Shown: positions 1 to 22,364 of the stretch, piece by piece
Layout: every line of letters begins with the position of its first letter
Numbering within the stretch: the stretch's first letter is position 1
Source of the DNA: Trichodesmium erythraeum IMS101
GTDB taxonomy: Bacteria > Cyanobacteriota > Cyanobacteriia > Cyanobacteriales > Microcoleaceae
Assembly (NCBI RefSeq): GCF_000014265.1
Contig: NC_008312.1
Span: 1,290,001 to 1,322,000, forward strand
DNA: 32,000 bases
Direction: 5' to 3'
Translations under genes and position numbers: made by a program
The notes under the pieces: generated by a model
Databases searched by the model: none
What the model was told of the DNA's origin: nothing
What the model saw: the letters and a program-made list of their open reading frames with translations, nothing else

Positions 1-1256
1 ACAGTTAGACTATCAGAATTTTCTAAAATTGCTTCTAGGGTTATAGTCTGTTGGTATAGAGAATAAAATGCTAACTGCAAACGATAGGGATGTCCGCCAA
101 GAATAGTAATTAATTGCTGGATTTGTGATTCGGTTATTTCTTGTTGGTAGCGCTGTGCTAGCTCCTGCACTTGAGCTGGGGTAAATTCAGGTAAATTGAT
201 GAGTGTTCCAGTATTCAATAGGGAGGGATTAATTGAGGAAGGCATCATAATTTCTGTAGAATAAATTGTCAGCAGTCGTAGTTTTTGCCAAGGATGACTT
301 TCTGTTTCCCCTGCTTGAGTTCTCCCAGACCAAGCTCGCAGAAGTTGGAGAAATTCACAAGCAATATCGGGGTAAGTAAAAAGCTGATTGAGTTCATCAA
401 TAGCTATTACTAGAGGGCGATCGCTTTGGGTTAAGATGATATCATTTAAATAGTCAGTAGCGATTGATTTGTTACCCAAAGAATTCTGCCAAAAAGCGGT
501 TATCTGCTCATGGTAAATTGCTTGATTTGAGTGGGCTTGAGACAATTTTAACTCCTGAGTAACTCTAGCACAGAACCATTGCAGGAAGCTTTCTAGGTTC
601 TGTAAAATTTTGAGGTCAACGAGTTGCAAATTCAGATAAAAGGTTTGATACCCCAGGGATTTAGCGAAAGCAATGATGCGGCTCATTAGGGAGGTTTTAC
701 CCATTTGCTTGGGGGCGCAGATGTTCAAAAGTGTACCTGGTTGCTGGATGCTTTTGTTACAAAGGGATTGGATTATAGGACGGTCAATGTAAAAGACAGA
801 ATCAATAGGCATCTGTCCTCCCGGTGTTTTTGGCAGATGAGATTGTAGCTTTTGTTGTGGTTTAACCATGTTTTTGCCTTGGGGGCTATTGTTCTGATAG
901 GGCAGCAGATGCAAAGAAGAGCTGTAGGTTAGTTTTGGGAAGAAGCAGGTTTTGGCTAGTGGTATGGGGTTAATCTCCTCTAAATTCTCTTGATTGGACT
1001 GTAGGTAAACATAGTCTTCTCTTGTTAAGGTTAGATTAAAAGCCTGGAAGCAGCACTTCAAGGTACGTTTATCAACTCCTGATGAGCAGGTAAAGACTTT
1101 GCTGATGGTATTGGGGGTTAAGCCGATTTTTTCACTAAGAGATTCAAGAGTATATCGCTGATTTTGCTGAACTTCTAAGTCTGATTTAGTCTTAATAAGT
1201 TTTCTACAACCTTGAGAACTAAGGATGACACCTCTTCGACGTATAGATTTTGTCAT
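1..1256 (-). CDS. HTH + AAA-like (STAND/ORC-type, Pfam AAA_35-like) P-loop ATPase; 3' end runs off the window
   Basis: Absent from the ORF track because there is no stop inside the window. My manual reverse-strand translation from the ATG at 1256-1254 stays open to nt 1. It reads MTKSIRRRGVILSSQGCRKLIKTKSDLEVQQNQRYTLESLSEKIGLTPNTISKVF (HTH-like), then DSVFYIDRPIIQ, Walker A ICAPKQMGKTSLMSRI and Walker B LVIAIDELNQLF. This layout is typical of cyanobacterial AAA-like-domain proteins. Confidence 0.8.
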   Translation of the reverse strand, partial: MTKSIRRRGVILSSQGCRKLIKTKSDLEVQQNQRYTLESLSEKIGLTPNTISKVFTCSSGVDKRTLKCCFQAFNLTLTREDYVYLQSNQENLEEINPIPLAKTCFFPKLTYSSSLHLLPYQNNSPQGKNMVKPQQKLQSHLPKTPGGQMPIDSVFYIDRPIIQSLCNKSIQQPGTLLNICAPKQMGKTSLMSRIIAFAKSLGYQTFYLNLQLVDLKILQNLESFLQWFCARVTQELKLSQAHSNQAIYHEQITAFWQNSLGNKSIATDYLNDIILTQSDRPLVIAIDELNQLFTYPDIACEFLQLLRAWSGRTQAGETESHPWQKLRLLTIYSTEIMMPSSINPSLLNTGTLINLPEFTPAQVQELAQRYQQEITESQIQQLITILGGHPYRLQLAFYSLYQQTITLEAILENSDSLT

Positions 1257-1660
1257 TGTTGTTATATTCAGGATGTAATATAGTTATAATTTTAGTAAAA
1301 GTAAAATACACCCTAGTATTCATGCTTGATTTATACTTACATAATACTACTATATGTCAATAAATTTATTATCCTTATCAAGAATAAGTCAAACAATGGA
1401 TAGTGTAGCAGAGGTATACAAAGTAATAGTCGAAAAAATTTTCAGGTAACTATTTCAGAAAATGATTGTCAACTTCCGGAATAAATTAATTAATTTTTTT
1501 CTGACTTCTAATTATAGCCATGAGCGCTCACATATTTACATCAGGACTTACGCAGGTAAGCTATTACTATTATACATATTACACTAGTAGCACTTTGTAA
1601 CATGTAAATATACCAGCGCACGTTGCTATATGAAGCGGGAAGTAAAGTGCTTAACTTTTT

Positions 1661-21300: not shown

Positions 21301-22364
21301 TGCTCAACCTGCAACAACAGCAGTATAAAGTCATGGCAGCAGAATACAAAGAGGTTAATTTTGATTCTTTTCCACTAACAGAGTTTGCCGAAACAACATA
21401 TCAGATGCGTCTCAACGATGAAATCAATATTCCGTCGGAGTGGAAAAAAGAACTCCAGACCATGGAAAAATACAAAATGGTTTTGCGCCGTCAAAAGTAT
21501 GTGGAAAATGACGTCGGTTCTCAATGGTATTTCCGCCATGATAAAATTCAAGAATATTTTATCGTCCAGACATTTATCGGTGAGGAAAATCAAAAATTAG
21601 AGGAACATATTGACGATCCCAGGTTTCGAGGAGTTTATCTATTATTAGCAACCCTCCTACCCTACCTAGAAGCCTGGTCACTGCGAGAGAAATTATTACA
21701 AAATGCAGCCGAAACCAAAGACCATGTTGTTAGCGACCAATTTATTCAACGCTTAAATTCTCGGTCGGAATTATCCAAAAATGGTGAGAATGTATACTTA
21801 AAGGAGTTAATAGAAGTTATGAAATTGCTTATTGCTGAGAAAAATAATAATATAAATAAGGAGTTGACAGAATTGACGAAATTGTTTATTACTGAGAAAA
21901 ATAATAATATAAATATTGAAGTTAACCCTAATATTGAAGCAAACCCTAATACGAGGAATAATTCAATGACAGATAATTCTGAATCAAAATATAACTTTAG
22001 CCAAGCCAGAGTTGGTAACGTAGTCGAAACAAATAATGGCAGTATGGGTAATGTAGTCGAGAAAGCCGAAAGTGGCAGTCAAGTTGTAGGAACTCAAAAT
22101 AACTATGGTTCCCAAGAAAAGCAAACCCTCGCCGAAGCCGCCGCCGAAATTCAAAAATTATTGAAACAATTAGAATTAAATAACCCCGCCGCGACAGACG
22201 CAGAAAAAGAAGCATTTGTCACCGCCTCCATTCCCCCAAACAACCGCCAACGTTTTGTCGGAGCATTGCAAGCATTAGGCAAAGAAGCCCTCAAAGAACT
22301 ATTAGATAACCCTTATATTAATGTGGGAGTAGCCACTGTTGAAGGGTGGCAAAACCCTAAATAA
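18366..22364 (+). CDS. NLR-like protein: signal/anchor segment, HEAT (PBS-lyase-type) repeat array, two hydrophobic segments, NACHT-type STAND NTPase, low-complexity region and conserved helical tail
   Basis: 1332-aa ORF with a TTG start at 18366 (alternative ATG at 18378). Has 13-14 33-aa HEAT-like repeats and hydrophobic segments at 20388-20459 and 20508-20558. Walker A GESGLGKS (20730-20753), Walker B LEICIDGLNEV, ILLATQP and the NACHT-typical NPMDLTIVAQIL are present. The tail reads QTLAEAAAEIQKLLKQLE...NPYINVGVATVEGWQNPK. Confidence 0.85.
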   Translation: MIKSMLFNPFLRKLRFLLLLLLVLLVVNLGHVRASEESPPADWQLQGILAALDDPDPDVWVKALKKMSEYDLKPVEISSERVEQIGKLLSHENWHVRSAAARAVGEMGAEAKVLIPQLLQLFRDENSGVRSAAARAVGEMGAEAKVLIPQLLQLFRDENSYVREAAVRAVGEMGAEAKVLIPQLLQLFRDESSGVRSAAARAVGEMGAEAKVLIPQLLQLFRDEDSYVRSAAARAVGEMGAEAKVLIPQLLQLFRDESSGVRSAAARAVGEMGAEAKVLIPQLLQLFRDESSYVRSAAARAVGEMGAEAKVLIPQLLQLFRDENSYVREAAVRAVGEMGAEAKDLIPQLLQLFRDENWYVRSAAVRAVGEMGAEAKDLIPQLQQLFRDENPYVREAAARAVGEMGAEAKVLIPQLQQLFRDENSGVRSAAARAVGEMGAEAKVLIPQLQQLFRDENSGVRSAAARAVGEMGAEAKVLIPQLLQLFRDESSYVREAAATAVGEMGAEAKDLIPQLQQLLMDENSDVREKAARAVGKIGKLNTQQILPILNAAHRNRDKEATLRFLAYFVSGGEYDALTLTKWLGSPEQYPYQIDKFKNERPISHEEGKKVLELFAEIWKPSQSLEYLPFELERQINIVVEKVDWQPEDLPLLKKHYNNLKDEDINAKIVALQGIQWFSYLWKFLLLHALTWLILLCLYAKSPEIQTLFWHPQIRKIAGLGYIGLLLTWIPSLRRLLFSPFQPILIADADLDSFNPQDYFSDSNVCLQNTHNLQPIKTTIAKIQSPIVLQGESGLGKSMFLRHWAKTRKNLVVYLPASKCAQGAIAAIQSKIPISQTDPKFLKRLIYNNALEICIDGLNEVTPDTRTKISYFVESHFRGHILLATQPLYWIPPSTTKTYVLQPLKREQIRQFLQTRQFNPSAEPSISRSEYEEACEEYLGKTFNSQKQSEEEQKTVRRLLSNPMDLTIVAQILAQGKTPDLLNLQQQQYKVMAAEYKEVNFDSFPLTEFAETTYQMRLNDEINIPSEWKKELQTMEKYKMVLRRQKYVENDVGSQWYFRHDKIQEYFIVQTFIGEENQKLEEHIDDPRFRGVYLLLATLLPYLEAWSLREKLLQNAAETKDHVVSDQFIQRLNSRSELSKNGENVYLKELIEVMKLLIAEKNNNINKELTELTKLFITEKNNNINIEVNPNIEANPNTRNNSMTDNSESKYNFSQARVGNVVETNNGSMGNVVEKAESGSQVVGTQNNYGSQEKQTLAEAAAEIQKLLKQLELNNPAATDAEKEAFVTASIPPNNRQRFVGALQALGKEALKELLDNPYINVGVATVEGWQNPK
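18639..20024 (+). repeat. In-frame tandem array: 13 near-identical 99-bp units (18639-19925) plus one degenerate unit
   Basis: The unit GAAAAT(TCG/TGG/CCG)...CGT(TCT/GAA)GCAGCAG(C/T)AAGGGCAGTGGGTGAGATGGGGGCGGAGGCTAAAG(T/A)TTTGATTCCCCAGTTGC(T/A)GCAGTTGTTCAGGGAT repeats with a 99-bp period. It encodes E(N/S/D)(S/W/P)(G/Y/H)VR(S/E)AA(A/V)RAVGEMGAEAK(V/D)LIPQL(L/Q)QLFRD. Confidence 0.95.

Follow-up and report, generated by a model that had tools for sequence, protein, structure and literature searches.

A conserved GTPase/vWA gene cassette beside a strain-variable lipase/MACPF gene pair on the chromosome of Trichodesmium erythraeum IMS101

Here we describe five genes that form one conserved cyanobacterial cassette within a 32,000-nucleotide stretch (the window) of the chromosome of Trichodesmium erythraeum IMS101. 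They encode two GTPases (G271, 271 aa, also called G1, and G301, 301 aa, also called G2), a 726-aa protein (P726), a 372-aa multi-transmembrane (multi-TM) protein (TM372) and a von Willebrand factor A (vWA) protein, and they lie in the 22-kb part of the window studied here, positions 1-22364. An initial annotation of this DNA, made from the sequence alone, had read the same part as a single envelope-centred conflict island pairing NTPase switches with membrane-lytic effectors. We consider it probable that the 22 kb are a strain-variable chromosomal patch of four evolutionarily independent units, A to D, rather than one cooperating system. The best overall explanation, and in our judgement a likely one, is a trimmed cyanobacterial GTPase/vWA operon joined by an unrelated insertion of a lipase and a MACPF gene and by two stand-alone STAND-type proteins. 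Unit A would then quite probably be the only genuine multi-gene system, made up of the relic of a third GTPase gene (G3), G1, G2, P726, TM372 and vWA plus two inserts. The lipase and MACPF genes make up unit B, and units C and D, a helix-turn-helix (HTH)-AAA_35 protein and a HEAT-TM-NACHT protein, are likely to be the stand-alone STAND-type members.

The linkage of the genes was tested on 79 loci of other cyanobacteria, each of at most 22 kb and from one genome per species, which were fetched with an alignment profile of the P726 family and whose named hosts are all cyanobacteria. Each window protein was compared with these loci by tblastn, and all open reading frames (ORFs) in the loci were clustered. 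G271, G301, P726, TM372 and vWA occur there in identical order on one strand, with P726 always directly downstream of the GTPases. Their typical start offsets within a locus (8260, 9080, 10001, 12150 and 13200, in that order) imply that the genes abut or overlap, and P726 and TM372 do so in other genomes. For 44 loci the flanking DNA was long enough to count presence: G1 and G2 are found in 43 of them, G3 is intact in 42, TM372 and vWA are each present in 36, and vWA is colinear with TM372 in 36 of the 44. For the lipase, the MACPF protein, the HEAT array, the NACHT part and the right-flank genes, tblastn found homologs in 0/79 loci outside Trichodesmium, and a homolog of AAA_35 lies near the cassette in only 1/79.

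The suggestion that some of these genes cooperate holds for the five cassette genes, which are colinear and on the same strand; the idea that the switches gate the lipase and the MACPF protein is not supported. The initial annotation had itself named a lack of conserved linkage in related genomes as part of what would speak against a joint island; such a lack is what we find for the remaining genes, with the five-gene linkage conserved. In some Okeania loci only G3-G1-G2-P726 are kept, TM372 and vWA not being nearby, so that the GTPases and P726 seem to be the invariant core. Some genomes hold tandem arrays of P726, with as many as four copies in a metagenome-assembled genome (MAG) of the Prochloraceae. 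These two patterns were seen in loci L067, L087, L075 and L035.

ORF clustering of the 79 loci and domain scans of representatives show the cassette to be part of a full operon of 15-17 genes. It starts with an occasional TraG/VirD4-like ATPase (directly upstream in 4/44 loci), followed by G3, G1, G2, one to four P726 paralogs, TM372 and vWA. Behind this first vWA gene come two to five tandem paralogs of a lipoprotein annotated as ARC6/PARC6 family, a β-lactamase-like serine hydrolase and further vWA proteins, giving two or three extracytoplasmic vWA proteins per full operon. A 127-aa protein, a zinc ribbon (ZnR)-FHA protein, a PP2C phosphatase and a Ser/Thr kinase close the operon. Lipoprotein paralogs were counted in 27/44 loci, ZnR-FHA in 18/44 and PP2C in 12/44, the last two counts being limited by the ends of the fetched loci. 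The copy numbers of the lipoprotein, vWA and P726 genes vary between loci.

The operon is often plasmid-borne and mobile. It occurs on at least eight plasmids, four of the eight records being predicted as mobilizable and two as conjugative. A full 16-17-gene operon (10-17781 and 33628-35751, locus L098) takes up roughly half of plasmid B (NC_007411.1, 35.8 kb) of Trichormus variabilis ATCC 29413, and the remainder of this plasmid carries ParA/ParB, DnaB, an integrase, XisF and IS1. RefSeq labels every core gene "hypothetical protein" in this plasmid and in Gloeothece PCC 7822, and gives the label "GTPase domain-containing protein" to one operon GTPase of Nostoc ATCC 53789. Trichodesmium itself has another such cassette, paralogous and compact, in which an intact G3 is followed by G1, G2, two P726 paralogs (876 and 890 aa), a TM372-like and a vWA-like gene. 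We describe it from a metagenome contig (L096, 7528-18096) that is near-identical to the IMS101 copy (P0033); its P726 is ~41% identical to that of the window. We found no published description of this large GTPase/vWA envelope operon.

Compared with the full operon, the copy in the window is trimmed. It runs G3 relic - G1 - G2 - P726 - 2.1-kb insert - TM372 - 1.3-kb insert - vWA, with G3 cut down to ~43 codons, and no traces of lipoprotein, FHA, PP2C or kinase genes were found in the window. The insertion that separates P726 from TM372 (10984-13102) contains a frameshifted Uma2-type gene and, at 12709-12848, a 70-nt tandem duplication of 99% identity. The insert between TM372 and vWA (1.29 kb) carries a PD-(D/E)xK gene, which is absent from this position in the loci of other cyanobacterial genera. 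Two directly repeated copies of the TM372/vWA junction, ~350 bp long, bound this insert, with 8911-9849 lying between them; 8652-8816(-) still translates to the TM372 C-terminal peptide. A duplication of ~350 bp of host sequence far exceeds the normal length of a target-site duplication.

Despite this trimming the five genes are intact. In comparison with Dapis the ratio of nonsynonymous to synonymous substitution rates (dN/dS) is 0.13 for G1, 0.18 for G2, 0.33 for P726, 0.15 for TM372 and 0.24 for vWA, and values of 0.13-0.33 for all five indicate that purifying selection continues to act on the trimmed copy. Between the window and Trichodesmium sp. MAG_R01 the five genes give 0 to 0.41, with few substitutions for G1 and G2. 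P726 evolves faster than the GTPases (0.33-0.41 vs 0.09-0.18), except for G1 at 0.42 in the comparison with MAG_R02.

The GTPases link the cassette to a described family. G301 exceeds the Pfam cut-off of 27 bits for both DO-GTPase2 (34.7 bits, E 1.9e-8) and DO-GTPase1 (33.0 bits, E 4.9e-8), and G271 stays under it for DO-GTPase1 (21.7 bits, E 1.4e-4). The two are paralogous (24% identity over 280 aa) and both retain GxxxxGKT, DYxGE and [ST]KCE, in the form DYPGE and SKCE in G1 and DYSGE and TKCE in G2; DY[PS]GE is kept in at least 90% of 61-62 orthologs. More generally the cassette GTPases retain GKT, DxxGE, and [ST]KCE or NKAD, and G3, of 250 aa, has a canonical NKxD motif.

The other three cassette proteins are predicted to sit in the membrane. 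For P726 an AlphaFold 2 (AF2) model (predicted local distance difference test, pLDDT, 81) suggests a cytosolic β-rich N-domain (1-220), a helical region (240-500), a TM helix at ~534-561 and an extracytoplasmic helical C-domain. The P726 family comprises 554 clusters at 50% identity, of which the best 150 were inspected; when 26 members and, separately, 9 long members were scanned with Pfam, no domain recurred, though two members gave a marginal PG_binding_1 match. These two matches are the only pointer to a peptidoglycan-binding C-terminus of P726, a profile of the C-terminal part having found no such domain in the PDB. TM372 has a multi-pass membrane domain (at least 4 TM segments) followed by a predicted cytosolic, divergent FHA-like domain of marginal significance (Ki-67 FHA at E 0.07; Pfam FHA matches in 4/23 family members). 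The vWA protein combines a signal anchor, a predicted extracytoplasmic vWA domain and a C-terminal TM helix (TM segments 17-35 and 433-451), and its metal-ion-dependent adhesion site (MIDAS) is intact, with DxSxS, T and D conserved across 44 orthologs. As regards the cassette, the envelope-centred character given to the stretch at the outset is right.

Among described classes, the DO-GTPase/GAP1 "GTPase-centric" conflict systems (Kaur, Burroughs, Iyer and Aravind 2020, eLife; PMC7159879) come closest, above all their GAP1-N2 type with its theme of kinase, PP2C and vWA. These systems have paralogous TRAFAC GTPases with a Walker-B Glu, typically with zinc ribbons. Downstream of them lies a three-domain GAP1 protein (GAP1-N1 or -N2, GAP1-M, GAP1-C), often with C-terminal TM helices. 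Membrane vWA proteins also belong to the class, and one theme adds a ZnR-kinase, PP2C and vWA. A GASH-domain protein marks the N1 type and a protein with fibronectin type III (FNIII) repeats the N2 type; repeated effector displacement is a hallmark of such systems. The authors report the class to be nearly absent from cyanobacteria and propose that it comprises conflict systems of multicellular bacteria, serving immunity or cell fate. We found no further publication describing DO-GTPase systems.

Several features of the cassette match. Its GTPases are paralogous and carry the DxxGE Glu after Walker B, G301 being above both Pfam thresholds. A large multi-domain protein, P726, lies directly downstream and has a C-terminal TM helix, as do many GAP1-N2 proteins. 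The cassette has a membrane-bound vWA protein, and full operons add a ZnR-bearing kinase, a PP2C and a standalone vWA protein. The neighbourhoods are mobile with variable components, paralogous copies occur within a genome, and most hosts are filamentous or colonial. Other features differ. The window copy itself is without kinase, PP2C and FHA genes; the full operon has three GTPases, none with zinc ribbons; and TM372 with its FHA-like domain, the tandem lipoproteins, the β-lactamase-like hydrolase and the 127-aa protein do not appear in the available portion of the text of PMC7159879. By this comparison the cassette would work along the lines of DO-GTPase/GAP1 systems, with P726 as a positional analog of GAP1.

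The domain content suggests how such a cassette might signal. The membrane-anchored vWA protein with its intact MIDAS would bind a periplasmic or cell-wall ligand. TM372, through its FHA-like domain, and P726, with a large cytosolic N-part and one TM helix, would pass the signal across the membrane and act on the G1/G2 pair, whose GTP cycle would set a threshold. In complete operons the output may then run through a kinase/PP2C/FHA phospho-relay.

It is possible, if on balance doubtful, that the cassette is not a conflict system and is an envelope, cell-wall or plasmid-associated signalling device, for example for peptidoglycan or septum surveillance or as an accessory of secretion or conjugation, in parallel to the regulation of type VI secretion by TagF/PpkA/PppA/Fha. 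The parts of cell-wall type point this way (an extracytoplasmic vWA protein, the ARC6/PARC6-annotated lipoproteins, the β-lactamase-like serine hydrolase), as do the marginal PG_binding_1 matches in two P726 members, the upstream TraG/VirD4-like gene of some loci, TagF at the top of the P726 fold list (not significant) and a conserved core without a toxin-like effector. The patchy, plasmid-borne distribution and the multiplication of paralogs, however, fit accessory or conflict genes better. The faster evolution of P726 relative to the GTPases, with the exception given above, also tells against such a device, and so does the empty PDB search with its C-terminal profile.

Rather unlikely, in our estimate, is a further proposal that sets the operon apart from the described class altogether. 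The triple-GTPase P726 operon would be a distinct, undescribed, cyanobacteria-specific and plasmid-mobile device for envelope-spanning immune or cell-fate surveillance in filamentous cyanobacteria, with no more than a distant relationship to DO-GTPase/GAP1 systems. In it, P726 would serve as a GTPase-docking transducer of a new kind, and the extracytoplasmic vWA proteins and the lipoprotein paralogs as diversifying sensors. Trichodesmium would hold the trimmed core beside an exchangeable slot that provides strain-specific membrane-attacking outputs.

The lipase and MACPF genes behave differently from the cassette. Trichodesmium sp. MAG_R01 has a colinear locus, with 96-98% nt identity to the window. 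The colinear stretch starts in the ABC/DAGK flank and takes in HEAT-NACHT, the G3 relic, G1, G2, P726, TM372, PD-(D/E)xK and vWA, and colinearity resumes at AAA_35. Between these points MAG_R01 is without ~5.2 kb holding the lipase and MACPF genes (window ~1848-7051) and has in that place a transposase fragment and a gene for an unrelated 118-aa secreted protein, with the same upstream element and 3' repeat. The absence of the segment from a colinear locus shows the pair to be an indel polymorphism independent of the NTPase genes. The pairing of NTPase switches with lytic effectors is thus unsupported: it came from adjacency in one lineage, the comparison within the genus contradicts it, and none of the 79 loci has a lipase, MACPF, HEAT or NACHT gene near the cassette. 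We think it likely that two toxin-like genes unrelated to the cassette were inserted here with a strain-specific segment of ~5 kb.

The two genes lie on the strand opposite to the cassette, convergent with it, and have their own common upstream element. This element of ~190 nt precedes the lipase gene, the MACPF gene and the unrelated 118-aa gene of MAG_R01; it had no match in two metagenome scans and among the fetched loci occurs only at the expected sites. A unit of upstream element, variable ORF and 3' repeat is seen three times, with the lipase and MACPF genes in IMS101 and with the 118-aa signal-peptide protein in MAG_R01 (L101, 19246-20202), and looks like an exchangeable gene-cassette slot. 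The last 159 residues of the lipase and MACPF453, as we call the 453-aa MACPF protein, share 70% aa identity, and the 3' ends of the two genes 92% nt identity over 300 nt.

MACPF453 is well supported by sequence and structure. It matches Pfam MACPF (57 bits vs a cut-off of 21.5, E 4e-15) and, among PDB sequences, 6fbm (GNIP1Aa, E 7.5e-13) and 2qp2 (Plu-MACPF). Foldseek alignments of its AF2 model (pLDDT 83.6) cover the full length: the one with 6fbm spans 474 columns (E 4e-22), and those with 8b6v and 2qp2 span ~500 columns. Its architecture, a MACPF domain with a C-terminal β-prism/tripod-like domain, is that of the insecticidal toxins GNIP1Aa (6fbm) and Mpf2Ba1 (8b6u/8b6v) and of Plu-MACPF (2qp2), which match it structurally over the full length at E 4e-22 to 7e-18. 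Sequence identity to these bacterial toxins reaches only 16-18%, MACPF453 belongs to a marine cyanobacterium, its C-terminal domain is also found on the adjacent lipase, and pore formation is here a prediction. For Mpf2Ba1, the β-prism has been related to one that is membrane-associated, and the authors of that work offer the speculation that the domain passes on a signal when it binds the membrane (PMC10344926). MACPF homologs of the same architecture (34-40% identity) are present in non-cyanobacteria, Methylophaga among them; in three other organisms whose gene surroundings were examined they are solitary genes amid unrelated, largely housekeeping genes.

The lipase assignment combines a weak profile match with conserved motifs. 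The protein, Tery_0814, has a cPLA2/patatin-like domain (aa 1 to ~560) followed by the ~155-aa β-prism-like C-terminal domain in common with the MACPF protein. It matches PLA2_B over its N-terminal 80 residues with 18.1 bits against a cut-off of 23 (E 1e-3), and neither single-sequence nor profile searches matched PDB sequences. Across 8 homologs SGGG and NSGGS are invariant and DGG..DN is near-invariant, the first Asp being Gly in P0261. As in cPLA2/patatin lipases, the family thus shows GGG oxyanion-type, NSGGS nucleophile-type and DGG motifs beside its weak PLA2_B match. It differs from patatin/CapV proteins in remaining below the Pfam threshold, in having no PADLOC CapV/CBASS match and in lacking a cyclase nearby. 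A further difference from cPLA2/patatin lipases is that the family is rare and has variable C-terminal domains. A search of 5.8e9 proteins gave only 10 clusters of homologs, and signal peptides or lipoboxes occur in most of them. In the closest non-identical homolog, the metagenomic 837-aa P0261 (60% identity), an FGE-sulfatase domain (PF03781) replaces the β-prism-like C-terminus. Of the two membrane-attacking enzymes proposed at the outset, the MACPF protein is therefore solid, and the phospholipase remains below its cut-off. By analogy with GNIP1Aa and Mpf2Ba1, the most likely action of both would be direct membrane attack, targeted by the common β-prism-like domain and free of control by the NTPases next to them; candidate targets would be grazers, competitors or the producing cell.

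An improbable alternative is that effector displacement took place, the IMS101 cassette having lost its kinase/PP2C/FHA output and recruited the lipase and MACPF genes, in a parallel to DO-GTPase and vWA-MoxR systems, whose effector slots are variable. The pair lies downstream of vWA, where the full operon has its variable genes, the same slot in MAG_R01 holds a different small secreted protein, and repeated displacement of effectors is described by Kaur et al. (PMC7159879). The pair is, however, convergent to the cassette with separate upstream elements, there is no effector-associated (EAD-type) or other common domain, and MAG_R01 keeps the five cassette genes at the low dN/dS values given above without the lipase and MACPF genes.

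The remaining two units are single genes. The AAA_35 protein is 491 aa long, of which the N-terminal 418 aa lie in the window. The HEAT-NACHT protein has a signal peptide, ~14 near-identical HEAT repeats, a TM segment, a NACHT-like NTPase and a coiled C-terminus. Its signal-peptide-like N-terminus (VRA|SE) gives it an inverted, receptor-like layout, and the repeats, lying behind the signal peptide and ahead of the TM segment, are predicted to be extracytoplasmic. The array (18528-20015) consists of about 13-15 units of 99 nt, 33 aa each, with 93-96% nt identity. The NACHT match stays below threshold (17.5 bits vs a cut-off of 26.7, E 0.004), GESGLGKS and DGLNE motifs can be seen by eye, and the best PDB match is NLRC4 at E 0.7 only. 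Like NLR-like STAND NTPases the protein has P-loop motifs, a weak NACHT match and a near-identical repeat array that varies in copy number between strains; unlike them, it carries the HEAT repeats N-terminal to the NTPase and predicted outside the cytoplasm, and NACHT is below threshold. The gene adjoins the cassette within Trichodesmium only, no homolog being found near the cassette in other genera. In MAG_R01 the array has one more 99-nt unit, and the ORF is split within it into 957 + 379 aa (L101, 2889-6908). Metagenome contigs tend to break within the array.

Several points weigh against the explanation we prefer, a conserved cassette beside independent units. No Pfam match to FNIII or GASH was found in the window proteins or in representatives of the conserved extra operon genes. 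P726 matched no Pfam family at E <= 0.1 in 26 family members, including any GAP1 models in the library, and a Foldseek search of its AF2 model against the PDB gave no significant neighbour (top TagF, E 0.16), so that membership of P726 in GAP1 is not claimed. The signalling mechanism suggested for unit A is drawn from domain content and topology only, and the trimmed cassette of the window has no evident effector. Neither the lipase nor MACPF453 has a signal peptide, and the pair sits exactly at the position of the full operon's downstream variable genes, where a strain-specific recruitment may have occurred.

That the entire island works as a single unit of abortive infection or programmed cell death, with AAA_35, G1/G2 and NACHT licensing the lipase and the MACPF protein to kill the infected filament cell, is very improbable. 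In its favour, all genes are adjacent in IMS101, PMC7159879 proposes the cassette class as conflict systems of multicellular bacteria, and nuclease-type genes (PD-(D/E)xK, the Uma2 relic) lie in the same patch. Against it, linkage is not conserved in the 79 loci, the colinear MAG_R01 locus is without the lipase and MACPF segment, the pair runs on the opposite strand with its own upstream element, no adaptor domain is held in common, PADLOC finds no known system, and relatives of the MACPF gene are solitary elsewhere.

Other elements of the initial annotation fared unevenly. Its gene inventory stands for AAA_35, the two GTPases, vWA, the multi-TM protein, the 726-aa protein and MACPF, with NACHT, lipase and FHA-like assignments relying on weak matches plus motifs; it did not include the PD-(D/E)xK gene or the operon membership of the five genes. 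Hydrophobic segments are predicted in exactly the four proteins it named and are confined to these among the island proteins (vWA, TM372, P726, HEAT-NACHT). Comparison bears out its observation that the switch and lytic proteins share no adaptor domain. The segmental duplications are real, namely the lipase/MACPF 3' ends, the ~190-nt upstream regions, the tm372/vWA junction and the 99-nt HEAT array. Two pseudogenes had been seen, and support for them is weak or indirect: the frameshifted Uma2 gene (E 0.012) and the 43-codon G3 relic (E 2.7e-14). An inverted-repeat scan gave only weak pairs and no convincing terminal inverted repeats for the proposed miniature inverted-repeat transposable elements, and the insertion-sequence relic placed at ~6093-6467 has no Pfam match. 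As to a known defence system, a PADLOC scan of all ten island proteins recognised no complete one and no CBASS/CapV match; its matches were a Cas-associated PD-DExK model and HEAT-repeat models. Comparison with Nostocales had been envisaged, and the host is the oscillatorian Trichodesmium.

The features of the studied part are collected in Table 1. Six window proteins (lipase, MACPF, PD-(D/E)xK, TM372, P726 and G2) are identical to IMS101 entries, among the identical matches being ABG50230 (Tery_0814), ABG50231, ABG50234, ABG50235, ABG50237 and ABG50238. We found no published mention of the locus tags Tery_0814-0823 or of Trichodesmium together with MACPF. The left flank beyond AAA_35 holds unrelated, mostly housekeeping-type genes (MscS-DEP, peptide deformylase, a pentapeptide protein, TenA), and the right flank is likewise of housekeeping type (an MGS-DAGK fusion, an ABC exporter, a multicopper oxidase, DnaX). 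The first right-flank gene named, 22665-23981 (-), 438 aa, fuses an MGS-like domain to a DAGK/YegS-type lipid kinase, and one source annotates it as methylglyoxal synthase. Neither a tRNA, an integrase nor an Rfam family match was found in the window.

Table 1. Features of window positions 1-22364 in T. erythraeum IMS101, with strand and supporting evidence (E, expectation value; a point marks features without strand).
Feature	Position	Strand	Evidence or remark
HTH+AAA_35 ATPase	3-1256	-	Pfam AAA_35 E 3.6e-90; independent unit, runs past window start
Upstream element copy 1, ahead of lipase gene	1629-1847	+	~190 nt common to 4316-4493
Lipase Tery_0814, 717 aa	1960-4113	+	PLA2_B E 1e-3, below cut-off; motifs
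Upstream element copy 2, ahead of MACPF gene	4316-4493	+	Repeat comparison
MACPF/perforin-like protein, 453 aa	4564-5925	+	Pfam MACPF E 4e-15
3' repeat, right edge of lipase/MACPF segment	7052-7234	.	Further copies 4227-4317, 5945-5986
vWA protein, 463 aa	7259-8650	-	VWA_2 E 1.6e-7; last cassette gene retained here
Duplicated tm372-3'/vWA-5' junction	8562-8910	.	Other copy 9850-10206
PD-(D/E)xK nuclease-family gene, 205 aa	9130-9747	-	PADLOC PDLC01472 E 4.9e-27
TM372, 372-aa multi-TM protein	9865-10983	-	No family above threshold; cassette gene
Frameshifted Uma2-family endonuclease pseudogene	11935-12599	-	Uma2 E 0.012, one fragment
P726, 726 aa, cassette signature protein	13103-15283	-	No Pfam match
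G2 (G301), DO-GTPase family	15631-16536	-	DO-GTPase1 and DO-GTPase2 above cut-off
G1 (G271), DO-type GTPase	16595-17410	-	DO-GTPase1 E 1.4e-4, below cut-off
G3 relic, first ~43 codons	17602-17730	-	tblastn E 2.7e-14, 70% identity
HEAT-TM-NACHT-like protein, 1332 aa	18366-22364	+	HEAT E 1e-100; NACHT E 0.004, below cut-off

Our analysis replaces an island assembled from guilt by adjacency with a tested picture of which genes are linked and which are not. The operon to which the cassette belongs is conserved across filamentous, colonial and some unicellular cyanobacteria, and plasmid B of T. variabilis ATCC 29413 offers a defined starting point for genetics on it. Trichodesmium blooms drive oceanic nitrogen fixation and collapse via poorly understood cell-death processes. 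With its strain-variable presence, the pair of perforin-like and lipase genes is a concrete candidate for a role in lysis or in activity against grazers.

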